A stretch of 60,716 bases of DNA, counting the filler, from Hausera hauseri (Eukaryota), in NCBI GenBank assembly GCA_046269625.1. It is 11 parts of 11 records of this genome, joined end to end, with 100 filler letters (N's around TTAATTAATTAA, not from the genome) between each part and the next. Parts side by side here need not be neighbours in the genome. Positions count along the whole stretch, not along the records: positions 38,206 to 42,516 come from JBJURY010642552.1; 10 more parts are not named here. The stretch is one strand, 5' to 3'. The number at the start of each line of letters is the position of its first letter. Positions within the stretch are counted from its first letter, which is position 1. Positions 25,296-52,837 of the stretch are shown here, one piece after another. The translations under genes and the position numbers were made by a program. Below the pieces are notes generated by a model. The model did no database searches. It saw nothing but the letters and a program-made list of their open reading frames with translations, and was not told where the DNA came from.

Positions 25296-25329
25296 ACAAC
25301 TATGGTAACATGTATAGGCGGGCACCACA

Positions 25330-26879: not shown

Positions 26880-28400
26880 AGCTGAGTTTTAAAAGTACAA
26901 GAAATTGATTTTATGCTTCAGGCTTTACTCTATTCAAAAGTGAAAAGTTTACTGAATGTATTGCAGCATGTAAAAAGGTTCTCGTAAAAAAACGAAAGGA
27001 TCATGCGGCTTTGTCGTTCAATGGAATTATACCATACTCGGTCAATAATTGCAGATAATTTGAATGCAGCTATTAATGCTAATGTACTTATCTATTTCTT
27101 GTTTTAGTGGACCTGGGTGACACACAGAATTATCGTTTCGAGAAACGCTTTGATTCCCAAAGGCTCAAATTATTCATTCATTATATCTCGGTGATATTAT
27201 TCATGATGGCTTTCTAATATATCCTCAATTATTCACAAAATCTCCGAGGTCGGTTATTTTATAAATAAAAGTTGTCAGACCCCGAATTTATGTTCACATA
27301 ACAAATTCAACATTCAAGAATAACGCTGGTCATGGTACCACAATCACCATTCTTTATGAATATCCAATCGATTATTCCATCTATGAAGATGATAAATCGT
27401 ATATTCGATCCGGAATTATTGGAGGTGTTATCCACACACCAAACATGATTCAAAACATTGCCCATCCAAATAAAACCAATAAGATTTACGAAAACTGCCA
27501 AATTAATAATTACTCCTCAGTGTTTTGGGGGTTATAGCATACCATTCGGTGAATCCCAATACGGCTTTTATTGAAAAGTAGACAATTGTTGCTTTGTTTA
27601 AGTGACAAAAAACCAATAAATTTTTTACTCGTCTTAATTTGAATTTAATAGCCATCTTTGAATTGGAATTTTCTTTGTATTTTCTATTACGGAATATTTT
27701 CACCGTAGTAATCGTGTTCTAAATTGGATTTTAATTTTTGCTTATTACTTCGAAAATTCCGCTTTTAATACTCGTTCTATCAACGACAATTTTCCAAGAA
27801 TTTGATTCTTTTACTGCATAATTTTGACGAATTTTATTAGGCCGATAATAGTTTACAAAACGTCGAACGAAATGTAAACAGAAAAAGAACCAATGTTAGA
27901 TTTTAAATACAGCAAGCAATTTGTTGATTCCATTGAAAAGAACGGTACCGACTTTAACATGCCGCTTGAATTTGGTTGGGCAAAATACTCATGAAGTAGC
28001 TCCATAGTATGTGCTGGTTGCTGTGGAGGTGCAATTGAGCACTGCTCAAATCTGAGCGTAAGTTTTGAAGCATAGCAGAAGGTTTCATATTCTCCGTCTG
28101 TCGCTTGGTGAAGACCAGGTTGAACTGGTCCTGTTGGGATGGCAGATATGCTTTGCATATGGCTGCTTTGATTTTGTCAAACGGCTTTTCATCTGACAGC
28201 AACGTGTCCAGATCCGTTATTACAGCGAGCGTCATTGGCTGTAGGTATTGAATCAATGTTAAGGCCTTGTTTAGTTGGACGGTTTAGTTAGACATAGAAC
28301 CATCTTAATGGCGTTCCGTCCGAACCTATAAAAAAGTGAGACAGGCTAATTTAAGTGGTTTTGCCGGTGCTGCTGAAGCCGTTTCATCTTTTTTGTCGGA
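26880..28400 (-). mobile_element. Highly decayed Gypsy element (gag plus pol traces)
   Basis: Gag 'KIKAAICKAY..MKPSAMLQNLR..ILWSYFMSILPNQIQA' (27954-28256); pol traces downstream are weak. Confidence 0.6.
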
Positions 28401-30339
28401 CGTAATGATGTCAACGCCTCTTTTTAGTTTGGTGTTGTGAGCAGTGTCGCATTGTTTGTAGGAAAGCAATCCGAAATAGGACTATCCCATGGACGTAAAA
28501 TGTTTGTGTTGTGAAAAAATGTAGTTCGGATATGAACTGGTGGTCAGTTGTAGCATTGTCTTAACGGACGTGTGTCGAGAAACGATACGCTTTGTATTGC
28601 GTAATCCGTGTATGAAAAATTGTATTTTTTGCGGTATTGTTTTGTCTTCAGAATTTTGTTCCGATTTGAGTGTATTAACGCGTGAAACCTTGCTTGGCTA
28701 TTTAAGCTTAGGCTTTTGTTTAGTTTTACTCGTTGTAATTTCCTGATTGATACCCGCGCTGAAAGTATTGATCACGTTTCGTGATGTAAACATGTGTGGC
28801 CGGATTGTTTTCGATGGAACTTGTTGGTGTATTGACCGGATTAATTTCAAAGGTGTTCGTATGAGTTTGAGCCGGATTGTTGTCAACGGGTGTGTTTGTT
28901 GTTAAAACCGGATGAGTATTTACAGTTCTGTCCGAAAGTGACGTGTGTGAGGTTTTAGTTGCCACTACCTTAGAGTTCTTATCCTTATTGGTGGAACTTT
29001 TAAATAAAAACAAGAAAGGAACATGCCGAAACAGTATAATAAAACGATGAAACAAAAATTGCGAAGAAAACAAAGAAATACCATGAATACTTTTTATTTT
29101 ATTCACGTAATTCTTTCGCTGAGGCATACGAGTCCTCGGTTGAGTCATGGGCTGAATTTGTCCTATGACTTCGTCGTGGAAGAGTCGGCGCGTTGTCCGA
29201 ACTGGAATTCGACTGTTTAGGTTCCCGTCGTATTGACTCGAACCGGCGTCAGCGGGACGGGATTGGAAAATCGTCTGAACTCGAACTTAACACCTTTAAA
29301 CGTGGAGTTCCGTCCGCTCGAGTGGCGGGATCAACTGGCTCTCTCTGACGGAACCAATGACTCGAACAATCGGTCGACGGCAGCCATAAACCGGATAACA
29401 TCGAGATGTATGCTAAGAGATCGACGAGCTTCCTCTTCTCTCCGTTGGCATAGAACTTTTGAGGTGACTTACCGGTAGCTAATACTGGTCGTATTCGGGT
29501 AGTCGGCTGAGATGTTTCATGAAACGGCTATGCTGCAGCAACTCACGCACCGCTCGGTAGTCCGAGTAGGATCAGTGCGGAGTTTGATGGTCCCGGACAC
29601 GGCGTCGTCTCCTGTGGACATTAGCATTTCTCAGGGTAGACTTTTCGCCGTTTCGACCGGCGGGATGTAGCTCTCTGCTTACCCCCTACTTATCGTGTGA
29701 CCTATCGTTGGGTGCCTGCGCGTTTTTTCCAGAGTGAGCTGATCGGTCTGTCTTTGGAATTCTGCACCCCGGAATGATAAGATCGTTCCCCTTGGCGATT
29801 GTTTCACCAGTTTGGACACTTTTTGGAGGCGACGTGAGCTTCGCTACCGCGTCAGGAGTTCTGGTGATTGGTTCACCTGGCCTTGTTGTTGAATTTCGAA
29901 TGTCGTGGGGAAATTCTGATTAATGATTTTGCATTTTTGTGGCAACTCGCTTTTCACTTTTTGAATAATCTGTTAATTTTTTTACTGTTGATTTAAACAA
30001 ACGGGTTTAAATCCACAGATTTTGTTCAGTAATTTTGCTTATTGACTACAAGTGCTGGTCACTTCGACAGTGATTCGTTTTTCGGTACTTGTAGTCATTT
30101 TGCTGATTTTGATATGTGTGAATCCGATATTTTAATTAAATTGTACCTCATAATTTTATGATTTCAAGTATTGGATTTCTATTCATTTTTATTTTATGAT
30201 TTAATTTTCACATTTAATTCCGTAACGTTTTAAGTTTTTACGATTTATTATTTTAATGAAGCTTTGATTGAATTTTATCTAATTTATATTTTTAAATTTT
30301 TTTGATTGTAAGGTGGAACCTTACAATATGGAACAACAG

Positions 30340-32059
30340 AACCAAAAAAACGGAGGCATTGATTAGGGTTGTGTAAATATTATGCAACTTATGTACCAGA
30401 TAATTCGAAGATAATGCACAACTGTATCGTTTACTTAAAAAAAGAATTAAGTGTAAATGGACGGTTGTCAAAAACAAAGCTTTCGATGAAATGAAAAAAA
30501 TTTCAACCCGTGAACCACTTTTAAGGTATCCTGATACTAAAAGTAATCCATGCAAAGAAGGCACTGAATACGAATTAACCCAGAAACGATATGAGGAATA
30601 ATTAGAAGATCCGACCGCCTATGGAGAACGATCACTAAAGAAAGCCGAGAAAAATTACTCAGTTATAGAGTTAGAAACATTGGCTGTAAGGAAAGCTTTA
30701 CGACATCTTGTCTTTATGTCTACGGGTACAAAATTATAATTATTACTAATCACAAAGCTGTTACGACGTTAAAAGTAAGAGCAAATAATCCAAAGTGTAG
30801 ACTCAACAGATGGATTGAAGAAATTTCACGATACAATACTGAATTCCAGTATAAGTCTGGAAATAAACATACCGACACCGATGCTTTCTGAAGACTAAAC
30901 TCCAAGACGAGTGCAATTACGATAATGAGAAAAACTAAACTCGCAGAGTTAGTATATAGACAGCGAGCTTTAACGCTAGATAAAGCAATTAAAATTTGGA
31001 TCGAAGAAAAAAAGGACAAAGCTATCAAACATACTGGTCAATTAGCAAAAATGTGATATTATGTCAAAGAGTCATCAATTAAGAAAACATTTACAAAGAT
31101 ATGATCATAAATACTGCGTATCGGACGACAAAAGTCACGAAAATGTTTTATATTACTAACGCAAGGACCGAAAATTGGTAACTACACCGAAAGGATTACG
31201 AACAGAAGTGTTAATGGCCCAACAAGACTCATACTTAGCTCGACGCTGGAAGAAGACATTATAAAGAATGTTAAATAAATATTACTGGCCAAGCATTTAT
31301 ATCGATACGAAAAATTTGGTAAACGCTTGTGAAATATGCGCAACCAAACAGAGAAAAGTAAAAAACTACATTGCTGAATTCAAACCGATAAACGTACAGG
31401 ACAGACCAATGCAAGTAATGTTTATGGATATTTTAGGATCACTACCTACAACTCGAAAAACTAATAAATACACCCTAACATGTACTGACCGACTAACTCA
31501 CTTTGTAGAACTAATATGATTAATTGATCAAAAGGCTGAAACTCTGGCAGAAGCCCTAATAAGGAAAATCTTTTTCATATATGGACCTCCTGAACAGATT
31601 TTGACAGATCGAGGAAGGAATTTTACAAATGAATTGTTTGAGGAAATTACCAAAATATTTGGGATTGAACAATTAACTACGACAGCCTATCATCCTCAAT
31701 GTAACGGAATGGTTGAATGAATGAACTCAACGTTTATACGAATTTTATCAGCAGTACTCTCAAAAGATCAGAAGGATTGAAATGAATTTTTATAAGGCAC
31801 TCAATTTGCTATAAATACAATACCATATTCCTCAATCGGATTTACAACATTTTTTATGATGTCTGGAAGAGAAGTCATATAAACAACTGATTTAGGAATG
31901 AAACCGTGTATGTTAAATCATGAAGATTTTGAACAGAATTTCGTAGAAGTATTGCAGACAAGATTACAAAGGTGTTGGGAAATAGCAAAAGAATTATCGC
32001 ATGAATACCAAGTGCAGTTTAAAAAGCAGTATGACAAGGAAGCTAAACCTCACGATTTA
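30340..32059 (+). mobile_element. Decayed Gypsy RT end, RNase H and integrase (different clade)
   Basis: 'LGLCKYY', 'AEKNYSVIELETLAV', 'ITNHKA', 'YYWPSIY..CEICA', 'MDILGSLP', 'ILTDRGRNF', 'TTAYHPQCNGMVE'. Confidence 0.9.
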
Positions 32060-32540: not shown

Positions 32541-33188
32541 TACAGGGTGAATTTTGAAATGCGTTGTGGTAGCTATGTCCAATTCGGATCTTGAGCTGTA
32601 AACAGTCTCACCATTTAGTAATTGTAGAAAATTTTGTTACAAACTTAAATTCGTCTGATTTACCCAATGGTGTTGTACAAAAATATCACAAAAATTAAAT
32701 AAATAGAATTTAAACAAAATTTGTTTGAATGAAATTTGTTTATTTTGTTGCACATGCATTGAACAGTCTTCCACAACTTCACAAAACACTGTTTCAACAG
32801 GATGGTGTGACATCGCACACTGCAAGGCAATCGATGGCAGCTGTGCGAGAATTGTTCGGTAACCGTGTCATCTCAAGATTCGGTGACATTCCCTGGCCCT
32901 CAAGATCACCGGATTTGTCCGCATGTAATTTTACTCTGGTCTACACGACTCGGCCAAGAACACTGGATGAATTGAAACAAAGAATTCAAGACGAAATTCG
33001 TGTATCCCAGCTGAGATGTTGCAGCGATCAATGGAGAACCTCAACAACAGATAGGAAGAATACATACGTACAGGAGGACGTCATCTGCAGGACGACATTT
33101 TCAAACATTGATAATTTGGATTACTGTCTCTTAAAATGCAATTTTTATTAGGTTTTTCAAAAGTTCCCGTTTTCTGTATCACCATGTA
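32541..33188 (+). mobile_element. Internally deleted IS630-Tc1-mariner DNA transposon (DDxD type) with TIRs
   Basis: 'FQQDGVTSHTA..RVISRFGDIPWPSRSPDLSACNF..PRTLDELKQRI'; ends TA-CAGGGTGA (32541) and TCACCATG-TA (33179-33188). Confidence 0.8.
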
Positions 33189-34869: not shown

Positions 34870-37800
34870 AACTACAACATTAGTGATCCTTTTACATCAG
34901 ATTGATCTGCAGCTTAGCACACGCAATTGGCGTATCAATATTCAATCAAATTTTGAGTGTTATTCACCCAGGAGATACTTAGGTTAGTTTTCACTTCAAG
35001 AACTCAAACTATAGAAATGATTTTAGTAGAATTTCTATATAGAACACAGAAAAACGATATCTACAAAATTCCAAAACTTAACAACCATCGCACAAGGCCT
35101 TTCATTACAGAAATCTAAATCTAACTAAAACTAAAGTGTTAATTTCAACAATAATTTAATCTATTATTGAAAATCCAATTGTGTGTGAGAAGCAGAAGTT
35201 TAATATGATTCAAAATGATCACATGACTGACTAACCATTAGCTATATTGAAAAATCCAAAGGGTTCCTGTTATTCATATGATATTTCTGTTTGCATGATC
35301 CGTATAGTCGAAACATCTGTTCACTGTAGATGAACATTTGGTTACTTCAGCACAAAGCTACGAGAATATGTTGCGGCTTTCTCACAATGTTACTATTGAT
35401 GAGTAAGGCCTTGAATTTCATGGATGACTCGGATTCCGTCAATGCATAATTGGAATTAAGATTGTTTGGATGAGTAACAGAGATAGAGAAAATGTATTTG
35501 GTGGCATTGTATATATTGGTCAAAGTAACAGTCACCGGAGTATTCTGAAGAATTTGTTTATCTATTTATGAAGCTACGATCATCCAGCTTATGAAGCATT
35601 TTCCTGACTTTTTGATATTTTCTGTTTTATTTTGATTTACTTCACCAGAATTTTGTGGTGACTTTTTAAATTTAGGTATATCATTAAATATGTTCGAAAA
35701 GTAATGTGTGTATGCAACTTATCTGTGTGTGTATCTGCATGTGAGTGTGTTTGTATTATTAGGTATGTTATTAAATGGAAAAATTGTAATTTATTTATTG
35801 AATATCTCCCTTAAAATTAATTCAAGTTTATTGTTTTTCACAGATGTTTATAAAAAATATTTTATCTTTTGGGCATTCAATTCAACGCCAGACGGGAAAT
35901 GTCATTAAAGTGTGTCTAAAAAAATCTCTTCTCGTTAATTTGATCGTGTATGATTTCAAATTTAAAGTCCATTCAAAAAAGAACTTACAGCTGTCTTTCA
36001 AATTTCTATTTACCATCACTGCAGAATCCCAGCGTCCCTTTTGTCTGCAATTACCATTATTGACTTTAAATAAAAAGATGAAATGTTTTATGGTACAACT
36101 TAAAAATATGCGTGTTGTGCTGATACATGTGTCAAATGAAAAATGTTCATCTGATAAGAAACGCATAAAAAATTTTACAAATTGATTATTAGTTCGGCAT
36201 ACACTGTAAATATGATTTCCGAACGACATACTAGCATTCCGAACATCCTCATAAAATTCCTCAAGGATAACGGGTTTAAACTTGATAAACTTCCTCAACA
36301 CATACATTAATAACATTTGAAAATGAGTTAACTAACATGGAGTTAATTGACATTAAATTCTCTTCGATTTTCAATGATTGCTTTGATATGTCAGATAAAT
36401 TCAAAACTGTTGAATGCGAATTTGTTAATTACAAAGTGGCCGATATGTTACATTGTTCAGTTTTATTTATCATCAATTTATTCATCTACGGCTGTTATTA
36501 CGCCAGTGTTTGCTATAACATTTGTTCTGATTTAATTTCAATAAAGATAATAAGATCTAATAAACGTCATTATGATTTATTTAATGAATCACTTAGATTA
36601 ACATTTTGAAATAAATACTGTTTTCATCAAACTATTTCAGATACTATTTTACTTAAATCGCAACTATTATGTTGGAATGTGATTGAAGATCGAAATAAAT
36701 TCCTTTATTGTAGCGTAGATATAATTAACTTTGAACGGGCTTCTAAGCAGATTTTTAATTTGACAATTTAATTTGAAATTATTTCTCCATTTTTTGACAG
36801 AACTTTATTTTCTTTAATTTGAAGAGGTGTATAGAACAAAGGGATTACAGGCAACAAAATGACAGCAAGAGAGTCTCCCAAATACTTAAAAACCTTCTTT
36901 GTGAACAGAAAACTCTCCAACAATCAAACTTGCTACCTACTCAACTTAAACAAAGTAATAATTCGTAGATATATATTTTCTTTTAAATGTTTCAACTCTC
37001 GTCAGAGATATCCACGTCGCGCTTAACGATACAACACCAATTTGTAGACGATCAATGTAGAGTAAGGGCCCACTTAAAGAGAATCAGACAAAAATTCCTT
37101 TTATTTTACACGCACAGCAATTTACCAGATTCAACAGATTAATCGTAGCAATTCAACGAATAGTCCACGTATCACTCGGCAACAGACAAACTATTTTGAC
37201 AACCACTCGATTTTAAGGCACACAAATCTTTCGTAATAAAAAATGAAATTTAATCTTGTCAAACTAACAAGTAAAATACCCCCTTGATTTCTTTAAATAG
37301 AAGTATCACGACTGTAAAATTATTAAGACAATCCAGTGAGATAGATTAATGAGTCAACTGGTGATTTTTATTTTCCTGTACAGTATTTATATCACTCCGT
37401 GTACAGAATCAAAAATAATTATGTTGGTGCAAAAAAATTACATTGAAAACTAATTATAAAACATTGTTCCCAGCGAACATTTTTACAATTCACTTGGGTG
37501 AGAATCAATCACCTTACACAGATTCAGCACATCCATCATTGCTGAATTAATTAAGTCAGTAGGTAGATGTGAGCACATTAGATCAAACCCCCCCTCCCAG
37601 GGAAGGAAGGAAAGAAGTAGTTCGGAGATGATTCATGAGATAGAAAAATTGATACACACATGCGGTTAATATGGGTGAGATAGGAGACACACAGTGAGAA
37701 AGTGGATACACACAAGCACGTGTACTGTATGGATTCGGGCGGTAAGTAAAAATTTGAATTTTGCGCCAATTTTTGTTTAAATTTTGATCTGATCGTGGTT

Positions 37801-38205
37801 TCACTATTCCCACCCCACTATCTGATTGGTCAGTTTGCTCCAAAAATTTTTGTTTAAATTTTGGTTGTTGACTATAAATAAAGGTGTTCTAATAGCATGC
37901 CGTTGTTTCAACAATTGATATGTTTTTTTAAATTTTATTCCCCAAAATAGTTTTAGAAGCAGAAATTAAACGGCTCACAAAGGAAATATGCAGTGGCAAA
38001 ATAGACTGTGTGCAATTTTTTAATGAACTGGAGAATGGATACTATCTGTCAAAGGAAGACTATGTCGAACTTATTGTTCGATCAATACTAATGACAAAGA
38101 TTAAANNNNNNNNNNNNNNNNNNNNNNNNNNNNNNNNNNNNNNNNNNNNTTAATTAATTAANNNNNNNNNNNNNNNNNNNNNNNNNNNNNNNNNNNNNNN
38201 NNNNN

Positions 38206-38745
38206 AAACAATAGGCTGTGAATCATTTGCAATGCTTTTTGATGACATTGATTCTAATTTAAAAGAAACTGATTCAAAAGTGTATAATTAGTCGGCTCAA
38301 GCTCAGGTCTCAGTAACAAATGAAATATATGATTTTTAAAACGTTTGAAATTGTTTTTCTTTTGTCCAACAGAATATTATAGAACTCGAGCTGTTCCACC
38401 AGTTAAATAGTCTGACTATCTAAAAACTGTCGGAGAATTTTTATCACCAGAAATTCGCGTTTTGTGGACTAGTCCAAAAGTTGTTTCGAAATTTATTTCG
38501 GTACTGCCGATCATTAAACTATCTGACGTTTTGCGACGGTTTCCTGTTATGTGACAATATTCAAGTTAATGACTATGTTCAACGTAGACTTTTTTTGGAT
38601 CCGTATTGTTGCCGTTCATCGAGTCTAATTCAGTACGTCAGCGGAGTACTTACTAATCCTAATTGCTAGTTCGAGGCTAATTATATTGCAACCCACACGT
38701 TGACTCAATGGACACAATGTTATAGAAGTAGTACAACCATTGATA
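38206..38745 (+). pseudogene. OGA: O-GlcNAcase (GH84 domain) fragment, intronless, disabled
   Basis: '[85 protein letters not shown]'; stops and frameshifts. Confidence 0.92.
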
Positions 38746-38759
38746 ATCTTACTGATAAT

Positions 38760-39134
38760 TATCGACTGTCAGAAGTTATCGAATTGATGGGCGATAGAAC
38801 TGAAGATTATATTAAAGAACTTAACCGTAATTTGCAATACGGTGTTCAGTTAGTTGTTACTTTGTTGTCTGCTGTTAGACAAGATCGTTATAATGCAATA
38901 AAGAAGTCATGTTATGTTGAAAATCCAGTTCTCAATCAGGTTGTTTTGGGCAACATAAGGAAGGATAGACCAAAATCAAACAGCGTTGCAATTGATATTG
39001 CTCTTGATATTAATGTGAAACTGGGCGGTGAGTTGTGGTCAGTAAAGATTCCAATTAACAAATTTACGGCCGTTGGTTTGGATGTTCGGCATGATTCTGC
39101 ATCCAGGGGCCGAAAGGGAGGCGAAAAATCTGTC
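38760..39134 (+). pseudogene. PIWI: Piwi-clade Argonaute fragment B (MID domain and start of PIWI domain)
   Basis: 'DRTEDYIKEL..QLVVTLL..RQDRYNAIKK..PVLNQVV..IALDINVKLGGELWSVKIP..VGLDVRHD'. Confidence 0.9.
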
Positions 39135-39428
39135 AGTGACATTTATTCGTGTAAAGAAGCGACGAAGTTACTTGGATATTGGAGAATAACGGTTGAGCAG
39201 GATACCGTTGAAATTAATGCGTGTAAAATGAATCCAGAGAAGATTTATTTTCGTAATGATGTTAACGTTAGTGCTGGTGAAAATGCTGAATTTAAACAGG
39301 TATTGGCTCACAATCGCGTAACTGCTGGAATTCGAATCGAGAATTGGTTGTTAATTGCTCAAAGAAGTTTGGTAAGCAAGGCTCAGGCATCAAGTCAGGC
39401 GTTGTGCAGTAAGGGTCCAAAAGTCGGT
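39130..39428 (+). pseudogene. PIWI: Piwi fragment A (L2 linker, natively upstream of fragment B)
   Basis: 'EATKLLGYWRITVEQDTVEINACKMNPEKIYF..AEF..IENWLLI..KAQ..QAL..GPKVG' resembles Piwi L2 (cf. 'L.DWGL.....GRIL..EKI...ADW...LDNWLLI..A..L.....P.MG'). Confidence 0.75.
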
Positions 39429-40207
39429 GTTCCTCAAATGATTGCTAAAAATTTAACGTTTCCAGAGAAGGTTACAATTTATAACATCAATTATCTCCAA
39501 CAATTGGTCAACAATGGATTCATGTACCCTGGTGCTACATTTGTTATAAGAGACAATGGCGAACGACTTGACCTGAAAAGACGGGCAGATACATCAGACG
39601 TTCGATTACAGTACGGATACACCGTGGAGCCTCATGTGCTTAACGACGATTTTGTGGTATTTAGTCGACAGCCAACTGCACAAAACATCAATGATGTGCC
39701 ATCGAGTGAAAGTTTTGCCTTTCTCAACATTTCGATTCAACCTTAGTGTCACAACACCTTACAACGCCGATTTTGATGGTAATGAAGTGAATTTGCATTT
39801 GCCACAATCCGTCGAAACAAAGGCCTAAGTATCAGATCTAGCCCGTGTCACGAAATTGGTCACTACTAATCAAAGTAACAAGCCAGTTATGAGTATCGTA
39901 CAGGATACACTAACTGCGTCCAAGAAAATGACTCGTAGAGACGTGTTTATCAATTGTGCCAAAATGATGCATCTTCTAATGTACTTGCCGACACGGAATG
40001 GTCGTTTGCCGAAACCAGTAATTTATAAGCCGTAAATGTTGTGGACGGGAAAACAATTGTTTTCACTAATAATTACAGGACGAATAGATTGTACTATGTT
40101 TCATTCGACTCATCCAGAAGTGGTAACCGCACAAGATAAGTATGTCACCATATGATACACATGTGCTTATTGAGGACGGTAAAGTGATTGAGCGAATGTT
40201 GTGTAAA
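39423..40207 (+). pseudogene. POLR2A: RNA polymerase II largest subunit fragment including the catalytic loop, disabled
   Basis: '[102 protein letters not shown]'. NADFDGD is mutated to NADFDGN; one or more frameshifts and stops. Confidence 0.95.
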
Positions 40208-40270
40208 CGATATCAATTGGATTTAGTTGGTCTACTGCAGTTTGTTTTAAATAAAATCAAAGACGGCCAT
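40202..40270 (+). pseudogene. THOC2: THO complex subunit 2 fragment (23 codons)
   Basis: 'KRYQLDLVGLLQFVLNKIKDG' resembles the recalled THOC2 segment '[21 protein letters not shown]'. Confidence 0.65.
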
Positions 40271-40478
40271 TGTGCTGAAATGTTCAAAAACTTCTTTTTT
40301 TCAGTTTTCGTTCTCGAAATTGAAAATCGAACATCCTGTCAGCTATTATTTCCTCGAGGACGCTATTAAAATGTTGAATTATTAGCCCCATGATTCATCG
40401 AAAAAGAAAAAATCGAGAGATGACGATGGAGATCAAGAAAGTACTGTTAGCGATACTGATGAGCTCGATGTAGATTGC
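40271..40478 (+). pseudogene. DHX9: DEAH RNA helicase A/maleless fragment
   Basis: 'EMFKNFF..VLEIENRT/HPVSYYFLEDAIKMLNY*PHDSSKKKKSRDDDGD..DVDC' resembles recalled DHX9 'MFCEYFF..IIEVYGRTYPVQEYFLEDCIQM..PPKDKKKKDKDDDG..DANC'. Confidence 0.75.
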
Positions 40479-41065
40479 AAATTCCCCTATAACAATTCAT
40501 CCTTGACTATTGAAGAAATCGAGCGTTTATGTTCCAGTGCATCCGATAAAGAGACTCTGAGTAATTCATATAAAGGTAATGCAACAATTGTTGATGATTT
40601 AACTAGCGTAAAATTAAACTATATCTTTGGCATGCAGTTCCTTCACGGTTGCTACAAGCCAATTTTGTTAATTTTGTATGAACCTATCGGGACAATTATG
40701 CGACATGCACTCACACGAAAGGACATATGCTGTGTGTTAAAATTATCGTTGAACCTACAAAAACGTACCACTCCACTTACATGGCATTTAAAAACTCTAC
40801 CTCAATTGTTTTAAAGTTGGCTTTATATCACGACCTATTGGCGGGACCATTATTTTGTCAATAAATATTGATTTATTTAAATCAAAGCCAATTTTCTTGC
40901 GGATTTTCGCTTAATGGACATGCCAAAAATCTACAAATTTCCCATTAAGACATACGACTTTATTCAATCCACTGACATTCGATGGCTGCGTTCGACACTA
41001 TAAATAACGAACAGCTGTTGGTTTCTACGACAACTGCAAAAGCATTTATTGTAAAATTCATTCTG
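40479..41065 (+). pseudogene. CPSF1: CPSF160 beta-propeller fragment, disabled
   Basis: 'KLNYIFGMQFLHGCYKPILLILYEP..RKDICCV..LSLNLQKR..P..WHLKTLP/..RPIGG../LIYLNQS..GFSLN' matches CPSF160; frameshifts. Confidence 0.88.
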
Positions 41066-41109
41066 AAAATGGACACGAGGATGGTTATTGGTCCACGCAC
41101 GAAAAAACA

Positions 41110-41308
41110 ATATAAAACGGTTTATAAACCACGTGTAAATAGGCAACCACCGGTTGCTTTTCCAGGTTCTGAAACAGCAAAAAGTAACAAAGGTGCTATG
41201 ACGATATCAAATACTAATACTATAGTTCAACTATCCAAGTCCCTACATAAGTCCTTCAACATTCTAATTCCTAAAGGAAGTTTTGTGCATTGGTACTCTG
41301 GAAGGGGA
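41110..41308 (+). pseudogene. Divergent alpha-tubulin C-terminal-domain fragment
   Basis: 'YKPRVNRQPPVAFPGSETAKSNKGAMTISNTNTI..LHKSFNILIPKGSFVHWYSGRG' aligns without gaps to '[56 protein letters not shown]'. Confidence 0.8.
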
Positions 41309-41309
41309 T

Positions 41310-42516
41310 CTTTGAGGCAGAATTCGGTCACCCCACAATTTGGGGCCCGCCGCGACGGGGCTGAGGTCTTGGCCGTCAACCCTGCGCCGGTTGGTCAGAC
41401 GGCGCCTTTCGCGTCAGCCCGGCAACACACCCCCGGGCACACAACCTCTCCTCTATTCATTTTTCTTTTTCTCAATAATAAACACATACACACTTTACAT
41501 TGCATTTACATATTGCAACCCTTCGTACCTTCATTTCTTTCTTACTCCACTCTTTCGATTTTTATCTTACTCATAACGGTTCTATAGTACTCCTCACCGG
41601 AACCCTACCATCTTTCTTAATCCATACTTGCCTCCACATACATTTCCGTACCCATAATGGCATGAACTCATCGCCAACCATAAACACCACGGATAAAACC
41701 ATTACGAAACCAAAATCTGTCATATTTCTTCAAAAACCCATTCCTACCCTTGCTAGCGACCTCTCACCTATTACCTCCTCCGCTCCTTTTCCTCACTGCA
41801 CCGAATTCTTTAGTGACAACCAAGGCTCCAGCAAAACTTGGTTGCAATTCCATAAACTATGGCTACAGGCAAATAATATTACTGATTCTTTAACCAAGGT
41901 ACACAGTCTTCTCTTCTTACTCCCTAATAACATCAAAACGCGAATTCACAACATTATCGAAGTCTTTGAACTTCCTGACCCATATCCCAACTCTTCAACG
42001 CCGTTCTTAAGATCACAGAACTCTCCATGGACACATCATACAACGTTTCTTCCACGACAATGTTATAGGCACCCAACGACCATCAGAATTCTTACGCACC
42101 TCTTTGGCACATCTACGTACCCTCGGCGTCACTAAAGAACACAATCCAGAACTACTGCGCCACTACTTCCTCAACGCGTTACCCATCCAAATCCGGGCCC
42201 TACTTACCGTGGTGGAAGACTCCACACCTCTTGAGAAATTGGACGAATTAGCCGATAAGACACACGACGTTCCACAGGTAAATTCCCCACCAGTTGTTTC
42301 GGCAGCAGTTGCCGCTAACGATATTCAAACCAATAACACATCAATAGAACAACAGCTTAAGCAGCTACGTGCTAAAAATATGACACTACACGTAACAATC
42401 AACAATATCAATAATAAACAAGCGAACTCACCCTGTCCCGCCGGATGGATGTTGTCGCTGACCGCGTCTGTTTTGCGTCTAGAAACCGCTCATCATCGCC
42501 TGCGCGTTTGTCGATC
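41310..42516 (+). mobile_element. Gypsy (CsRn1-like) 5' leader and frameshifted gag
   Basis: GC-rich ..CA-att-TGGGG leader, pyrimidine-rich UTR, gag 'EFF..KTWLQ..WLQANNITDSLTKVH..LP', 'PSEFL.HL..ELLRHYFLNALPIQIRALL..LEKLDELADK'. Confidence 0.8.
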
Positions 42517-42616: not shown

Positions 42617-45600
42617 CAAAATGCTTTGTACTATGGGGTGGGAATAGTGAAACCCGGCAGCGGCCACAAAATGCTTTGTACTAAGGAGTGGGAATAGCGA
42701 AAGCCAACAGCTGCAATATAATGCTTCGTATTGAATATTAATCTGCAATTTTGGGCGGTCAAATAGGAAATTTACATTGGTCCAAAGCGCTCAAATCCCC
42801 CTCGGAAAATTAATATCGCAAAATTTAAACAAAAAGGGTGAGAATAAACAAATCCAACAGCGGCCACATAATGCTTTGTACTAGGGGATGGGAATATTAA
42901 AACCCAAAAGCGACAAGATAATGCTTCGTATTGAATATTGAATTGCAATTCTGGGGCGTCCGAGGTAGGAAATTCATATTGTACCAATGTGCACACGACC
43001 CCTCGGAAAATCAATATCGCAAAATTTAAACTAAAATGGTGGGAATAATGCAACCCAACAGCGGCCACTTAATGTTTGTACCGGGGGGTGGAAATATTGA
43101 AACGCAACAGCGGCCAGCTAATGCATTGCACTACGGGGTGGCAATAGTGAAATCCAACAGCGGCGACATAATGCTTTGTACCAGGGGGTGGAAACAGAGA
43201 AATCCAACAGCGGCCACATAAAGCTTTTTACAAAGGGTTCGGAATAGAGAAATCCAACAGCGGCCACATAATGCATTGTACTAGGGGATGGGAATATTGA
43301 AACCCAACAGCGGCAAGATAATGCTTCGTATTGAATATTGATTTGCAATTCTTGGGGGTCCGAGAGAGGAAATTCATATTGGCCCAGTGTGCTCACGTCC
43401 CTCTCGAAAAATTAATATCGAAAAATTTAAATAAAAAGGGTGGGAATAATAAAACCCAACAGAGGCAACATAATATTTGTACCAGAGTGTTGGAATAGTG
43501 GAGCCCAAGAGCAACTTGATAATGATTTGTACTAGGGAGTGAGAGTGGTGAAAACCAACAGCAAGTATACAGTTCTTTGGACTACGCGTGGGAATAGTGA
43601 AACCCAACGTCGGCCAGCTAATGCTTTGCACTAGAAGGTGGTAATAGTGAAAACCAACAGCGGCCATATAATTCTTTGGACTACGTGTGGGAATAGTGAA
43701 ACCCTGCAGCAGCCAGCTAATGCATTGCATTAGGGGGTGGGAAGAGTGAAATCCAACAGCGGCCACATAATGCTTTGTACCAGGGGTTGGAAATAGAGAA
43801 ATCCAACAGCTGCTGGATAATACTTTGTCCAAAGGGGTGGGAATAGTGAAACCAAAAAGCGGCCACATAATACTTTGTACTATGGGTCGGAATAGTGAAA
43901 TTCAACAGCGGCGACATAATGCTTTGTACCAGGGGTTGGAATAGAGAAATCCAACAGCGGCCACATAAAATCTTTGTACTAGGGAGTGAGAATAGTGAAA
44001 CCCAACAGCGGCCAGATAATACATTGTACTACGTGGTGGGAACAGTGCAAGCCAACAGCGGCAAGATAATGCTTCGTATTGAATATTGATTTCCAATTCT
44101 GGGGTGTCCGAGACAGGAAATTTATATTTGCCCATTGTGCTCACATCTCCCTCGGAAAATCAATATCGCAAAATTTAAAAAAAAGGTTGGAAAAACGAAA
44201 CCCAACAGCGGCCACATAATGTTTGTGCCAGGGGTTGGATATAGAGAAATCCAACAGCGGATAGATAATACTTTGAACGAGGGGGTGGGAATAGTGAAAG
44301 ACAACAGCGGCCAAATAATGCTTTGCACCAAGGATTAAAAATAGTTAAACACAACAGCGGCCACATAATTCTTTGTAGCAGTGACTGAAAACAGTGAAAG
44401 CCAACAGCGGACACATAATGCTTTGTAATAGGGTGTGGGAATATTGAAAGTCAACAGCAGCAAGATAATGCTTCGTATTGAATACTGATTTCCAATTCTG
44501 GGGAGTCCGAGATAGGAAATTTATGTTGGCGCAGTGTGCTCACTTCCACCTCGGAAAATAATATTGCAAAATTTAAACAAAAATGGTGGGAATAATGAAA
44601 CCCAACAGAGGCAAAATAATGCTTGTACCAAGGAGTGCGAAGAGCGGAGCCCAACAGCGACCAGATAATGCTTTGTACTAGGAGCTGGGAATAGTGAAAG
44701 CAAACAGCAGCTACACATTTCTTTGTTCTATAGGGTGGGAATAGAGAAATCCAACAGCGGCCACATCATCATTGCACTAGTGGGTGGGAATAGCGAAACC
44801 CAACAGCGTCCACATATTTCTTTTTACTATGGCGATGGAGTAGAGAAATCCAACAGCGGCCACATCATGCTTTGCACTAGGGGGTGGGAATAATGAAACC
44901 CAACAGCGGTTACATAATGATTTGTATCATGGGATGGGAACAGTGAACCTCGTCAGCTGCCACATAATTCTTTGTACTAATGCGTAAGAATAGAGAAACC
45001 CAGCAACGGCCAGATAATACTTTGTACTAGGGGTGGAAATAGTGAAACCCAAGAGCGCCCATATAATTCTTTGTACTGGGCGGTGGTAATGAAGAAGTCC
45101 AACAGCGGCCACATCATGCTTTGCACTAGGGGGTGGGAATAGTGATACCCAACAGCGGCCACGCATTTCTTTATACTAGGGGGTGCAAATAAAGAAATGC
45201 AACAGCGGCTAGATAATACTTTGAACTAGGGGGTGGGAATAGTGAAACTCAAAGCGGCCACGTAATGCTTTGTTCTAGGGTTTGCAAATAGAGAAATCCA
45301 ACAGCGGCTAGATCATACTTTGTACTAGTTGGTGGGAATAGTGAAACCAAAATGCAGCCACATAATGCTTTGTACCAGAAGTTGGAAAGAGAGAAATTCA
45401 ACAGGGGTTAGATAATACTCTGTACTAGTTGGTGGGAATAGTAAAACCAAAATGCAGCCACATAATGCTTTGTACCAGAAATTGGAAAGAGAGAAATTCA
45501 ACAGGGGTTAGATAATACTTTGTACTAGGTTTGGGAATAGTGAAACCCAAAACGGCCACATAAAGCTTTGTACTAGGGTTCGGAATAGAGAAATCCAACA

Positions 45601-48600
45601 GCGGAAATAAAATTCATTGGACTACGGGTGGAAATAGTAAAATCCAAGAGCGGCCAAATAATACTTTGTACCAGAGGGTGGGAATAGAGAAATCCAACAG
45701 CGGCTAGATAATACTTTGAACGAGGGGGTGGGAATAGTGAAAGTCAACAGCGGCAACATAACTCTTTTTACCAGGGAGTAAAAATTGTAAAACGCAACGG
45801 CGGCCACATAATTCTTTGTACCAGCGAGTGAAAATAGTGAAATCCAAGAGCGGCAACATAATGCCTTTTACTAGGGCGTGGGGATAGTGAAACACAACAG
45901 CGGCCAAATATTTCTTTGTACTATGGGGAGGGAACAGAGCAATCAAACAGCGGCCACGTCATGCTTTGCACTAGGGGGTGCGAATAAAGAAATCCAACAG
46001 CGGCTAGATAATACTTTGAACTAGGTGGTGGGAATTGTGAAACCCAAATGCAGCCACATGATGCTTTGTACCAGGGGTTGGAAATAGAAAAATCCAACAG
46101 CGGCTAGATAATACTTTGGGCTAGGGGTGGGAATAGTGAAACCCAACAGCGGCAAGATAATGCTTCGTACTATGGGGTGGGAATAGTGAGGCCCAACAGC
46201 GGCAAGATAATGCTTCGTACTATGGGGTGGGAATAGTGAGGCCCAAAAGCGGCCACATAATGATTTGTACCAGGGAGTAGGAATAGGGAAACCCAACAAT
46301 GACCAGATAATACTTTGTTCTAGGGAGTGGGAATAATGAAAGCCAACAGCGGCCACATAAGTCTTTATACTACGGGTGGGAATAGTGAAAGCCAACAGTG
46401 GCCACATAAGTCTTTATACTACGGGTGGGAATAGTGAAAGCCAACAGTGGCAAGATAATGCTTCGTATTAAATGTTGATTTCCAATTCTGGGGGATCCGA
46501 GATAAAAAATTTATATTTGCCCAGTGTGCTCTCATCCCCCTCGGGAAGTCAATATCGCAAAATTTAAACAAAAAGGGTGGGAATAATGAAACCCAACAGC
46601 GGCCACATAATGTTTGTGCCAGGAGGTGGAAATAGTGAAGCCCAACATCGACCAGATAATGTTTTGTAGTAGGGGTTGGGAATAGTGAAAGCCAACAGCG
46701 GCCAAATAATGCTTTGCACTAGGGTGTGGGAATAGAGAATCCAACTGCGGCCAAATAATACTTTGTATTACAGGGTGGGAACAGTGAAACCCAACAGCGA
46801 CCACATAGTGCTTTGTACTATGGTGTGGGAATATTGAAATTCAACAGCGGCAAAATAATGCTTCGTATTGAATATTGATTTCCAATTCTGGGGGGTCGGA
46901 GATAGGAAATTTCAGTTCGCGCAGTGTGCTCACATCCTCCTCGCAAAATCAATACCGCAAAATTTAAACAAAAATAGTGGGAATAATGAAACCCAACAGA
47001 GGCCAAATAATGTTTGTACCAAAAGGTGGGCATAGTGAAACCCAACAGCGGCCACATATTTCTTTGTAGTATAGGGTGGGAGTAGAGAAATCCAACAGCG
47101 GTCACATCATACTTTGCACTACGGGGTGGGAATAATGAAACTCAACGGCGGCCACATAACGATTTTTGCCAGGGGGTGGGAATAGTGAACCACCGCAGCT
47201 GCCACATAATTCTTTGTACCAGTGTGTGAGAATAGAGAACCCAACAACGGCCAGATAATACATTGTACTATGCGGTGGGAATAGTGAAACCCAAGAGCGC
47301 CCACATAATTCTTTGTACTGGGGGGTGGGAATAGAGAAATCCAATAGCTGCCACATAATGTTTTGTACTACGGGTGGCAATAGTGAAACACAACAGCGGC
47401 CACATAATGCTTTGTCCTAAATGGTGCAAATAGAGAAATCCAACAGCGGCTAGATAATACTTTTTCTCGGGGGTGGGAATAGTGAAACCCAAAAGCGGCC
47501 ACGTAATTCTTTGTACGAGGGGTCGGAATAGTGAAATCCAACAGATGTCACATAAAGCTTTGTACTAGGGGGTGTGAATAGTGAAACCAACAGGGGCAAC
47601 ATAATGCTTTGTAACAGGGTGTGGGAAAACTGAAACCCAACAGCGGCCAGCTAATGCTTTGTACTAGGGATGGGAATAAAGAAATCCAACATCCACTAGA
47701 CACTACTTAGTACTACGGGGTGGGAATATTGAAACCCAACCGCGACAAGATAATGCTTCGTATTGAATATTGATTTGCAATTTTGGGGGGTACGAGTTAG
47801 AACATTTATATTAGTGCAGTGTGCTCACATCCCCCTCAGAAAATCAATATCGCAAAATTTGAACAAGAAGGGTGGGAACGAAGAAATCAAACAGGCCACA
47901 AAATGTTTGTACCAGGAGGTGGGAATAGTGAAGCCCAAAAGCCACCAGATAATGCTTTGTACTAGGGGTGGGAATATTGAAAGCCAACAGCAGCCAGATA
48001 ATGCTTTGTAATAGGGGGTGGGAATAGTGAAACACAACATCAACCAGATAATGCTTTGTAATAGGGGGTGGGAATAGTGGAACACAAAAGCGGCCTGATA
48101 ATAATTTGTACTAGGGGCTGGGAATAGTGAAACCCAACAACGGCCACATAATACTTTGTACTAGTTTGTGGGAATAGTGAACCTCAATAGCGGCCACATA
48201 ATTCTTTTTATTAGAGTGTGAGAATAGTAAAACCGAACAACGGTCAGATAATGCTTCGTATTGACTATTAATTTCCAATCCTGGCAGGTCCGAGATAGGA
48301 AATTTACACGGGTGCAGTGTGCTCACATCCCCCTCGAAAAATGAACATTGCAGTTTTTGAAAATTTAAACTAAAAGGGTTGGGAATAGTGAAACCCAACA
48401 GAGGCCAGATAATGCTTTGTACCAGGGGTTGGGAATCGTGAAAGTCCAAAGCGCAACATAATGCTTTGTACCAGAGTGTGTGAAAAGTGAAACCCAACAG
48501 CGGACACATAATGCTTTGTACTAAGTGTGGGAATAGTGAAACACAACAGCGGCCACATAATACTTGGCACAAGGGGGTGGAAATAGTGAAAGTCAATAGC

Positions 48601-50320
48601 GGCCACATAATGCTTTGTACATGGAGGTGCGAATATTGAAGCCCAACAGTGGTCAGATTATACTTTATTCTAATGGGTGGGAACAGTGGAAGCCAGCAGC
48701 GGCAAGATAATGCTTCGTACTGAATACTGATTTCCAATTCGGGGGATCCGGGATAGGAAACTTATATTGGCGCAGTGTGCTCACATCCTCCTCGGAAAAT
48801 CAATATCGCAAAATTTAAACAAAAAGGGTGGGAATAATGAAACCCAACAGCGGCCACATAATGTTTGTGCCAGGAGGTGGAAATAGTGAAGCCCAACATC
48901 GACCAGATAATGCTTTGTACTAGGGGGTGGGAATAGTGAAAACCAACAGCGGCCGCATAATGATTTGTACTAGGGGATTGGAATAGTGAAATCCAAAAGC
49001 GGCCAGATAATACTTTGTACTAGGGGGTGGGAATAGTTAAAGCCAACATCAGCAAGGAACCCAACCTCGACCACATAATGCTTTTTACCGGCGAGCAAAA
49101 ATAGTAAAACCCAACAGCGGCCACATAATTCTTCGTACTACGGGTGGGAAAAGAGAAACCCAACAACTGCCACATAATGCTTTGTACTATCGGGTGGGAG
49201 TAGTGAAACCCAGAAGCGGCCACATAATACTTTATACTAGGAGGTGGGAATAGTGAATCCCAACAGCCGCGACATAATGCTATGTACTAGATAGTGAGAA
49301 TAGTATAACCCAACAACCACCAAATAATACTTTGTACTAGGGTGTGGGAATAGTGACACCCAACAGCGTCCAGCGGATTCTTTGTACTAGGGGTGGGAAT
49401 AGTGAAACCCAACAGCGTCCAACGAATGCTTTGTACCATGGGTTGGGAATAGTGAAGCCCAACAGCGACTATATAATCCTTTGTACTAGGGGGTGGGAAT
49501 AGTGAAAACCAACAGTGGCCAAATAATTCTTTGTACTAAAGAGTGGGATTAGAGAAACCCAACAGCGGCCACATCATGCTTTGTATTAGGGGGTGGGAAT
49601 ATTAAAGGCCAACAGCGGCCAGATAATGCTTCCTATTGAATATTGATTTCCAATTCTAGGGGGTCCGGGATAGGAAATTTATATTGGCCCACTGGGCTCA
49701 TATCCCCCGCGAATAATCAATATCGCAAAATTTAAACAAAAGTGTGGGAATAATGAAATCCAACAACGGCCAGATATGGCTTTCTTTAAAAATTGATTAT
49801 TGAATATTGATTTCCAATCCTTGGGGGTCCCACATAGAAAATTTATATTCTCCCAGTGTGGTCACATCCCCCTCGAAAAATGAATATTGCACTCTTTGAA
49901 AATTTAAACAAAAGGGGTGGAAATAGTGAAACCCAAAAGCAGCCAGATAATGCTTTTTACTAGGGGTTGGCAACAGTGAAACTCAACAGCGGCAACATAA
50001 TCCTTTGTACCAGGGTGTGGGAATAGTGAAACCCAACAGCGGTTACATAATGCTTTGTATTAGAGGGTGGGAATAATGAAACCCAACAGCGGTCACATAA
50101 TGCTTTGTACTGGGGCTGGGAATAGTAAAACCCAACAGCGGCCAGATAATGCTTCTTACTGAATATTGATTTCCAATTCTGGGGTATCCGGGATAGGAAA
50201 TTTATCATGGCGTATTGTGCTCACATCCCCCTTGGAAAATAAATTTCGCAAAGTTTAAACAAAAAGGGTGGGAATAATGAAATCCAACAGCGGTTACATA
50301 ATGTTTGTAATAAACTGTGG
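42617..50320. repeat. Satellite: 50-bp monomer array with about 13 interspersed 150-bp variant units
   Basis: Consensus ATAATGCTTTGTACTAGGGGGTGGGAATAGTGAAACCCAACAGCGGCCAC (period 50, e.g. 42621 to 42671). Long unit starts atgcttcgtattgaatattga at about 42721, 42921, 43321, 44069, 44468, 46458, 46858, 47753, 48251, 48710, 49626 and 50149, plus a partial copy near 49795. Confidence 0.97.
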
Positions 50321-50797
50321 NNNNNNNNNNNNNNNNNNNNNNNNNNNNNNNNNNNNNNNNNNNNTTAATTAATTAANNNNNNNNNNNNNNNNNNNNNNNN
50401 NNNNNNNNNNNNNNNNNNNNAGTAAAAGCCTCTGCCTATTCATCTACCAAGCAAACGAGAATTGTTCTCCTCATTAATTAATTAGTAATTTACAGTCGCT
50501 TCAAAAGTAAATTGGTAAGGATTGAACAATTTTCGTCATTACCTAACTGCATTTTCATATAAAAATTAAATTGATATAGTAAGTTGCTTATGCAGCACAA
50601 TGATCCAATTTACGAAAATATGCAGCTGTGAAACAAAATTTTAATTATCATTTATGTTGATACTAGGTGACGTTTTTTGTCTTGCCTAACAACCATGGAA
50701 ACCCAGTTATATCTCATCATAGTTATTGCAATCGACATTTTTACTCAACAATCCGAAATTCATCATAATAAATTAGTGGTCTTATGACACAACATTA

Positions 50798-52837
50798 ATG
50801 GAGAACATAGCCAACAACAATCTGGTAAATCTGATCACAGACTCATGCAATGGATACCTCTGCATAATTCCAGCTGCCTACGAACTCTTAATGGTATTTC
50901 AACGAACTCTACATGATACCAATGAAAATGAAAGATCCATCAATGGGAAATTCTTAAACTGCACCAGTGAAAACCCATTTGTTGGAACGATTAAATTCAG
51001 TGGGGTACTTCTGTCCGTCATTGCCATGGCAACAATGGCCTTTATGGTCAAACGAGTGTCATGTGGTAGACAGTGTTGCCATGGTCGACCTGGACTGGCA
51101 TTACCAATGGAAATGCTGGAATCCCACGATCATCTTGTGGAATATTCCTTCGTATTTCTGTCGACAACTGACGATGTCTACGTGAGTATATTCGAAGGAA
51201 CAAACATATTTGGATCTCAATTACCAATAGTAAAATTTTTCATCAAATTACTTCTCGTCTTTTCCATTGTGATTACTTATTATCCTTTGTTTTCAGGTGT
51301 GCGACATCGATGTTTGTATGGCTACATCATGGCATTGATTTTATCGATTATTTTGTTCAGCATCGTCATGTGTCAGAATTATTTCGTGATTATTTGTCTC
51401 ACAAAAATAAAAATTATTCCGTTTCTTTTTACTGTGATCTTCAGTACGACGTTTGACTTGGGTCTTATCATCATTTTTATGATGAGGATTGTGAACCATA
51501 TCAGATGGAATGGATGCAAATTATGGGAGAAATCAATCAGCAGCGATGAACAGAAAAATCAATATTGGTTCATTTATGTGAAGGAATTATTGAGGGACAA
51601 TAATTTTGAATTGGTTCAGATGGAGGAGACTCATAAAAGTACTGTGAAAGAAGTTTTGTCCAATTTCAAATGCAGCGCCATGAGGAACAAAATGAGGAAG
51701 AATATATACAGGGAAATTCCCGGATTCAGTTTGCCTCCACGGTTGATTATTGGGATACTATTTGGATTGTACTTTGCGTATCGAATATTCATTGACCAAA
51801 TTTATGATATGACCCCAATGGCATGGAATTTCATTGCGGCTATTCAATTGCTATACCCCACAACAAAAACAGACACTACTGCTGCATTCAAGGTCATCAC
51901 AGGCAACTTATCTCAATATTCAACTAAACAAGTCCTCAATTCATTCCGTTACATCATTTTCCTTTATGCCAATATTTTACTAGGGTGTCTCATATTTTCT
52001 GTCATCAGCAGCTTCCTCGTCACCATCATCCAATGTTTCCTCACTGTACGCAGTTATCGATTGAAATTTCTCCAGCTAACTCAAACTGGATTCTCCTCCA
52101 TGATAAATCTCGATAAAGCACCTGAACCTCATTCATTGATATTGGGATTTGTGAGATTTAGTGGATTCCAGGCTGCTTATATTCTGTGGGCAATTCTGGC
52201 AATGATCTTCTTCCAGTTTGTTGTAACATTCTTTGCTGTTGGAGTGTTCCTCGTGCCGTTGATCTACATCCCAAATTCGTGGAGCAGATCCGTTCTTATC
52301 AATTACAGTCCCGTCATTATTACATCGTTCATTTTCAACTATCTTCAATCGGTGATCATCAAATATGCATTCGTAAAGGAGAGGGGCCAACTTATGGAGG
52401 TGAACAATAGAAATGCATTTACTATCTACAGCCATGTTGTCTTCTTTGTCAATGCCATGATGGGATTCTTCAGTTCCATAAAGAAGGCCATTGTGTGGAT
52501 AGTTTGTGGAATTTTTTCCATGGGTCGAATTGATTTCAACTCTCTACCGGACTATTTGAAAGGGTGTGATGGAGGATTTATGAGTTTTCTTGGGTTCCTG
52601 TACACTGAACAGTATCACCACAATCCAATACTGCGCTGTTTTGTTAGTCTACTGCGTGATAAAGATAGCACGGTGGATGAAGGTTCGTTATTTGGAAACC
52701 AAATTTTATTGGATAACAGAAATGGTAGAAAATCAAAGAAGTATCGAAACAAATGGCTAGTAACGTACACTTTAATCCATAACCACAAACTTCTCGGTGA
52801 GAGGAAATTATTTCTGTCCAACAATATCATACCCTGA
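50798..52837 (+). CDS. STRA6: STRA6/RBPR2-family (retinol-binding-protein receptor-like) multi-pass membrane protein
   Basis: Intact 679-aa ORF with many TM segments and family motifs 'GRPGLALP', 'YYPLF', 'RFSGFQAAYILW', 'NNR..F', 'GRID', 'DGGF.SF.GFL..E..HHNP', 'RNKWLVTYTLIHN..L'. Confidence 0.88.
   Translation: MENIANNNLVNLITDSCNGYLCIIPAAYELLMVFQRTLHDTNENERSINGKFLNCTSENPFVGTIKFSGVLLSVIAMATMAFMVKRVSCGRQCCHGRPGLALPMEMLESHDHLVEYSFVFLSTTDDVYVSIFEGTNIFGSQLPIVKFFIKLLLVFSIVITYYPLFSGVRHRCLYGYIMALILSIILFSIVMCQNYFVIICLTKIKIIPFLFTVIFSTTFDLGLIIIFMMRIVNHIRWNGCKLWEKSISSDEQKNQYWFIYVKELLRDNNFELVQMEETHKSTVKEVLSNFKCSAMRNKMRKNIYREIPGFSLPPRLIIGILFGLYFAYRIFIDQIYDMTPMAWNFIAAIQLLYPTTKTDTTAAFKVITGNLSQYSTKQVLNSFRYIIFLYANILLGCLIFSVISSFLVTIIQCFLTVRSYRLKFLQLTQTGFSSMINLDKAPEPHSLILGFVRFSGFQAAYILWAILAMIFFQFVVTFFAVGVFLVPLIYIPNSWSRSVLINYSPVIITSFIFNYLQSVIIKYAFVKERGQLMEVNNRNAFTIYSHVVFFVNAMMGFFSSIKKAIVWIVCGIFSMGRIDFNSLPDYLKGCDGGFMSFLGFLYTEQYHHNPILRCFVSLLRDKDSTVDEGSLFGNQILLDNRNGRKSKKYRNKWLVTYTLIHNHKLLGERKLFLSNNIIP

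Follow-up and report, generated by a model that had tools for sequence, protein, structure and literature searches.

A segment of 675 nt (38757-39431) consists of two pieces of a planarian PiwiC/SMEDWI-3-type gene that are joined in reversed order, with the downstream part of the gene (piece B) in front of the upstream part (piece A). The segment lies within a cassette of host gene fragments, which comprises, in this order, O-GlcNAcase, Piwi B, Piwi A, RPB1, an unassigned stretch, CPSF1 and alpha-tubulin, followed by a Gypsy gag-like remnant (Table 1). The reading that we favor, with a probability of roughly 0.55, is a capture of mRNAs by template switching, during which one piwi template was used a second time, via a loop-back guided by microhomology or via a closed cDNA. 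If confirmed, the segment would be a compact fossil of the handling of host RNA by a reverse transcriptase, in a planarian unit that has captured a minimum of five transcripts of housekeeping or stem-cell genes, among them that of the piRNA effector.

Table 1. Features of the gene-fragment cassette and of the block that contains it.
Feature	Position	Strand	Remarks
Block with the whole cassette	38206..42516		bounded by filler spacers; left end of the cassette lost at the block edge
O-GlcNAcase coding fragment	38211..38744	+	PF07555 positions 103-272, three frame segments
358-codon open frame	38670..39746	+	O-GlcNAcase end, Piwi B, Piwi A, RPB1; first ATG at 38787
Piwi piece B	38757..39138	+	remainder of MID and first PIWI strand; P0001 ~182/190-309
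B/A junction	39126..39140	+	in frame; imperfect repeat K-S-V-G / E-F-V-D
Piwi piece A	39132..39431	+	end of L2 and start of MID; P0001 82-181, ungapped
Piwi/RPB1 overlap	39421..39431	+	V-G-V in frame in both parents; microhomology of at most 11 nt
RNA polymerase II RPB1 coding fragment	39423..40210	+	colinear, 791 versus 795 nt
Coding-like stretch with acidic segment	40211..40604	+	in frame with the CPSF1 piece
CPSF1 (CPSF160) coding fragment	40605..40802	+	E 7e-11
Alpha-tubulin C-terminal coding fragment	41117..41311	+	E 1.5e-9, strongly diverged
GC-rich structured stretch, then AT-rich with AATAAA	41312..41658	+	can be read as LTR end and primer site, or as short LTR
Ty3/Gypsy gag-like remnant	41659..42516	+	frameshifted, on the strand of the cassette, ended by the block edge

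The window, i.e., the whole stretch of 60,716 nt that was analyzed, is composed of 11 blocks of 4-8 kb each, which are separated by identical N-linker spacers. The blocks look like unrelated contigs, and frames run off their edges. Within the cassette all five identified genes (5/5) are represented by coding sequence in sense orientation, on the strand of gag, and neither intronic nor intergenic content was seen. The O-GlcNAcase fragment (E 4e-19 against the PDB O-GlcNAcase) has no gap of intron size; it is interrupted by two frameshifts and three stops (38289, 38408, and 38667). The RPB1 fragment is disrupted by two frameshifts and two stops. The Piwi and RPB1 pieces are colinear with their reference proteins and deviate from the respective lengths by no more than 4 nt, which argues for a copy without introns. 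The open frame that spans the Piwi pieces has matches to the Piwi family and to domain 2 of RPB1. No poly(A) tail was seen at the joins of the cassette and no terminal inverted repeats were found at it; the block contains no tRNA genes, and the search against Rfam returned a single match at chance level (27 bits versus a cut-off of 90).

The stretch between RPB1 and CPSF1 is probably a sixth captured gene. Assignments to USP, PH, Kunitz or THOC2 were discarded, every hint being below significance. Downstream of the CPSF1 piece, a frameshifted continuation to about 41085 presumably resembles CPSF1; a search with all three frames gave no CPSF1 match. The alpha-tubulin piece has diverged from canonical tubulin far more than the other pieces have from their respective genes, yet it is open in frame.

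The reversed order of the Piwi pieces, which the first-pass annotation had described as a MID/PIWI-start piece in front of an L2 piece, was borne out by independent comparisons. In a phmmer search against the PDB, residues 5-145 of the query matched residues 438-573 of 7kx7_A (Piwi-A) and residues 122-209 matched 331-417. Piece A aligned without gaps to residues 82/84-181 of P0001 (72/100 identical), so that the assignment to L2 withstood the alignment, while the alignment of piece B began at residue ~183 and was good to ~308/309, with an identity of ~65%. Among the 163 proteins that were fetched, 70 were Piwis that matched both pieces, and A preceded B in all 70; a Piwi piece together with an RPB1 piece was found in none of the 163. 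Piece A presumably comprises, judged by the general structure of Piwi proteins, the end of L2 and the first strand and helix of MID, so that the cut would lie inside MID. A functional Piwi has N, PAZ, MID and a full PIWI domain in this order. Here only the part that corresponds to P0001 82-309 is present, from L2 through MID to the first PIWI strand, and it is permuted and decayed. The lack of PAZ and of a complete RNase H fold indicates that this is not a working Piwi.

The closest relatives of the segment are P0001, DjPiwiC of Dugesia japonica (P0002), and P0003, i.e., proteins of the planarian PiwiC type, and the other Piwis listed in the comparison were at most 46% identical. The source gene is thus a planarian PiwiC/SMEDWI-3 (65-72% identity for both pieces), and the DNA most likely stems from a triclad flatworm. 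In separate trees piece A fell into the PiwiC clade (100/94), and so did piece B (100/99), as sister to P0001 (99/94); the trees comprised 23 and 26 rows, and no row carried the name of a further planarian paralogue. For the two pieces an equal nucleotide divergence was fitted (0.09 and 0.10). An origin from different Piwi paralogues was therefore rejected, with the exception of very recent PiwiC duplicates. Membership of both pieces in the PiwiC orthologue class is supported by these comparisons and agrees with the proposal that they stem from one gene, within the same limit of very recent duplicates.

The two pieces had also been proposed to be adjacent in the native gene. This could be narrowed down to near-abutment, and exact abutment is not proven. 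The first Piwi codon of piece B corresponds to one of the residues 182-194 of P0001, with ~63% of the weight on 186-190 and ~26% on 194, which places the true start of B within 38757-38793. Codons up to 181 do not fit a Piwi, and the probability of an overlap with A is below 1%. The gap between the end of A and the start of B in the parent is therefore 0-13 codons (0-39 nt). With free fragment lengths, assumed to be 400-800 nt, the chance of such a small gap without overlap is about 5-10%. Independent switches among many mRNAs would hardly draw on one gene in two consecutive steps and leave a tiny gap but no overlap, which suggests that a single molecule served as template. On neither strand does the window contain a second occurrence of any 20-mer of the block, and it contains no further Piwi match, and thus no leftover of a duplicated Piwi sequence.

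These observations bear on the possibility that a colinear piwi retrocopy was rearranged later. A slippage duplication at an imperfect repeat would have produced an A-B/A-B arrangement, from which the first A and the last B would have been lost by microhomology deletions during further rounds of retrotransposition. The VGV motif at the end of piece A would have served as deletion microhomology, the retention of B's bases at the B/A join (see below) fits a slippage on the sense strand, and chimeras of this type can retropose again (PMC5131818). Nevertheless, we regard this course of events as rather unlikely: three events are required, the near-abutment without overlap would be a coincidence of 5-10%, and the duplicated Piwi sequence that might have been left behind is missing from the window.

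The junctions were analyzed with back-translated proteins of other species standing in for the parent gene, and this applies to all figures given for them. At the B/A join the native K-S-V-G at the end of B meets, in frame, the native E-F-V-D at the start of A. The crossover had been placed at about 39130; it was found at 39136-39140 instead, with a posterior of 68-96% over 12 parameter settings and a peak at 39138. This is the 3' margin of the region of similarity, so that the bases of B are kept. The best 9-mer has 5.8 expected matches versus 3.1 in the null (fraction 0.005), and the fractions for 6, 12, and 15 nt are 0.04, 0.03, and 0.12, respectively. At the A/RPB1 join the expected matches in the best 9-mer amount to 6.9, with 3.1 as the mean of the null (fraction 0.0004 among 40000 random pairs), and the fractions are 0.001-0.006 at other lengths. 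Piece A ends in a VGV that it has in common with RPB1 (33 of 40 RPB1-like motifs that were fetched read Q-, E- or similar followed by VGVP), so that the last base of A can be anywhere in 39421-39431. Microsimilarity is therefore present at both testable fusion points (2/2). In-frame joins are to be expected at sites of microhomology, since their share is 0.33 overall and 0.75 among the 1% of pairs with the highest similarity.

Template switching among mRNAs packaged by LTR retrotransposons has been described; 25 of 29 junctions showed microsimilarity, and one mouse retrocopy was composed of four genes (PMC5131818). By analogy, a reverse transcriptase could have switched among co-packaged host mRNAs, or their cDNAs, and have generated the multi-gene chimera as in LTR-mediated retroposition. 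The Piwi flip would then result from the double use of one piwiC template molecule, by a loop-back, or by a closure of the cDNA ends, at the imperfect repeat that codons 80-83 and 306-309 have in common. Synthesis would stop at the first entry point into the template, presumably because the RNA has been consumed there by RNase H or is occupied by the new strand, which we derive from the established behavior of reverse transcriptases, and it would exit at the nearest microhomology, the VGV common to RPB1. Loop-back and forced exit together would account for the B-A order, for the lack of overlap and for the small gap, and a back-spliced RNA would not be required. The retention of B's bases favors a join at the level of the sense strand or cDNA over a plain minus-strand jump by a factor of about 2 to 20, and we lean to the former. 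Against the loop-back, the B/A microsimilarity is weaker at lengths other than 9 nt, and the crossover is on the side opposite to that expected from a simple switch of the minus strand on mRNA.

The first-pass annotation had offered two mechanisms, a circular intermediate and a jump of the reverse transcriptase on the same template. The microsimilarity at both testable junctions makes the jump the best fit, once it is widened to a microhomology-guided loop-back. Of the circular intermediate, the circular topology and the double use of one template are retained. The insertion of a DNA circle by one homologous crossover, in contrast, is not supported, because the left edge of the Piwi segment has no second copy of the 9-nt VGV overlap. 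A circle of genomic DNA could instead have been formed from an intronless stretch of piwiC, been opened once and been patched into a break between O-GlcNAcase and RPB1. Flipped blocks are known from circular DNA duplications, together with microhomology and the loss of 1-27 bp (PMC7450558; PMC7188851), and the decay pattern of the Piwi piece is unlike that of its neighbors. However, every identified neighbor is sense coding sequence, which argues for an RNA source, and both an intronless stretch of 680 nt and a strike on an existing chimera would be needed in addition to an integration other than by a single homologous crossover. This origin is accordingly improbable.

Another candidate for the template is a piwiC circRNA, about 675-680 nt long, that would have arisen by back-splicing. 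The reverse transcriptase would have entered at VGV, have copied one round and have run off near its entry. This would likewise predict the B-A order, the lack of overlap and the near-abutment, and the bases of B are indeed kept to a sharp point, the last of them being a G (39138, after T, or 39136, after A). In our reading, one of 114 proteins (P0135) apparently continues into an intron just after the motif homologous to K-S-V-G; the corresponding position (39135), however, has a posterior of only 0.004 in the base model. Other apparent read-throughs into introns, read from protein tails of the Piwis of other animals in the same set of 114 proteins, are found at P0001 positions 144, 212, 274, 280-281, and 321, and the start of piece A is not convincingly marked by any of them. 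A circRNA would not predict the similarity between the joined sites (0.005-0.12), and it would demand that the exon preceding piece A ends in A, which is a less common exon end. There is precedent in circRNA-derived pseudogenes, which are enriched beside LTRs (PMC4897178). In sum, we consider a circRNA template unlikely.

Near-abutting B-A order is usually taken as proof of a covalent circle. A microhomology loop-back on a linear template gives the same pattern, and therefore calls of circRNA-derived pseudogenes need a test at the level of exons.

The state of decay differs along the cassette. O-GlcNAcase and RPB1 together have four frameshifts and five stops in 1325 nt, while the 675 nt of Piwi sequence are free of both (P ~0.025, post hoc). 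Nevertheless, 45 of the 182 Piwi residues that are invariant in three planarian proteins are altered, versus 6 of 63 in the RPB1 piece (Fisher p 0.011, with invariant sets of different depths), and the terminal branches of the two Piwi pieces are 0.32 and 0.47 long versus ~0.04 for intact orthologues. Purifying selection on the Piwi piece is not supported, as 21% and 28% of the invariant residues are altered. As judged from the sequence, the Piwi piece looks like a product of neutral decay or of a capture from a diverged paralogue, not like part of a conserved fusion protein, and the permuted cassette is probably non-functional. That the Piwi piece is open and yet more altered than RPB1 may reflect a difference in the age of capture, or an origin from a diverged paralogue.

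The decay is also relevant for the question of an assembly or library chimera. The assembly comes in blocks of 4-8 kb and only a single copy of the chimera was seen: the window contains no second one, and none was found among the best 150 of 2036 matches in the 50% library. P0050, P0088, and similar long matches were considered as copies of the chimera and turned out to be plain RPB1 pieces. Against an artefact, the joined pieces are decayed copies and not live genes, with 45/182 altered invariant residues in Piwi and stops and frameshifts in its neighbors, three joins would have to be in frame, and there is no repeated 20-mer to mislead an assembler. An artefact is therefore highly improbable. 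A more far-reaching scenario is that a planarian Gypsy element reverse-transcribed a back-spliced circRNA of piwiC, a host gene that silences transposons, into the chimera, which was then kept open in frame or was transcribed as a source of anti-piwiC small RNAs. If true, an LTR-captured cassette of an invertebrate would harbor a circRNA-derived pseudogene, with a possible effect on the silencing pathway. Constraint is hinted at solely by the freedom of the Piwi piece from stops and frameshifts, and we regard this scenario as very improbable.

Each candidate mechanism for the Piwi flip has a published precedent. The cassette likely belongs to the LTR-mediated chimeric retrocopies (Tan et al., 2016, PMC5131818), with which it has in common partial, intronless-looking mRNA pieces of several genes, joins with microsimilarity, an adjoining LTR retrotransposon on the same strand and the lack of poly(A) at the joins. 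Unlike the retrocopies described there, it contains at least five genes, one of which is permuted. Retrocopies of this class take the place of the internal sequence between a 5' and a 3' LTR; in the present block gag lies downstream, the left end is cut off, and no flanking LTR pair was found. The circRNA-derived pseudogenes (Dong et al., 2016, PMC4897178) are defined by an exact back-splice exon junction. The cassette resembles them in the reversed order of two parts of one gene, which was found here, and in the LTR-type sequence nearby, and it differs from those described by its microsimilar join, the multi-gene chimera and the invertebrate host. With circular DNA duplications (PMC7450558; PMC7188851) it has in common flipped blocks, a near-abutting opening point, short losses, and microhomology; however, genomic segments of at least 20 kb are reported for these (PMC7450558), in contrast to the present 675 nt, which are purely coding and are surrounded by mRNA-like pieces. 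Pack-TIR elements and Helitrons also string together fragments of host genes, with microhomology at the joins (PMC8277862; PMC6431247), but capture at the DNA level usually brings introns or intergenic DNA, and no terminal inverted repeats were found at the cassette.

A permuted retrocopy from a jump on the same template was not found in the literature surveyed, which is weak evidence of absence. A permuted piece in a multi-gene chimera was likewise missing from the literature surveyed, including the main text of PMC5131818, the supplements of which may hold one, and the titles and first lines of abstracts of the circRNA literature surveyed name no piwi circRNA. The sections covered of a preprint on planarian piRNA clusters (10.64898/2026.01.28.702291) describe pseudogene-like clusters and nothing on cassettes of this type, and those of PMC3510499 deal with circles of LINE cDNA, not with permuted host pieces.

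The screen for a primer-binding site of the adjacent element made use of known primer-site motifs. A tRNA-Pro-like motif at 41340 has three mismatches and is within chance (14/100 shuffles). No tRNA-Trp primer match was present at the gag-bearing element; the form of this site is given in PMC2582038. The fold of the structured stretch upstream of gag has a z of -2.6, and 2 of 200 shuffles were equally good. Neither the interpretation as LTR end with a tRNA-Pro-like primer site nor that as short LTR clearly beats chance. An LTR pair was not found, and neither was a clean primer site. The assignment to gag is a moderately strong lead: the remnant goes with DUF7041/Retrotrans_gag clusters (0.92-0.94, with low counts of shared features) and resembles a gag elsewhere in the window (27957-28283, minus strand; E 1e-5), and it has no Pfam match. 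The capture of the host genes by this Gypsy element is a proposal that is unproven, and the position of the cassette, upstream of gag and not demonstrably between two LTRs, speaks against an LTR-borne capture.

The related gag lies within 24196-32059, which together with 1-8920 contains several remnants of Ty3/Gypsy pol and gag; they are decayed and differ in orientation. Two further blocks, 9760-12748 and 13877-18926, are decayed and related to each other; they include a piece of a type-B2 DNA polymerase and are Polinton/Maverick-like. Fragments at 32729-33151 and 54689-55138 are, by their motifs, presumably Tc1/mariner-like transposases; 54689-55135 had no Pfam match. A 7.5-kb satellite at 42617-50154 has a 50-nt unit and higher-order periods that range from 99 to 400 nt, and a 21-nt piece of it recurs in inverted orientation at about 37797-37817.

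The window also contains several host-type open frames. An intact intronless frame at 58684-60006 resembles 26S proteasome ATPase subunit 4 (~58-66% identity to the best relatives) and is possibly a retrogene or a fast-evolving paralogue. An ORF with BRCT at 53554-54276 on the minus strand is one which we take to be TopBP1- or ECT2-like. Lastly, an intronless frame of 686 codons at 50777-52837 belongs to the STRA6/retinol-binding-protein receptor family (PF14752, E 3e-59).
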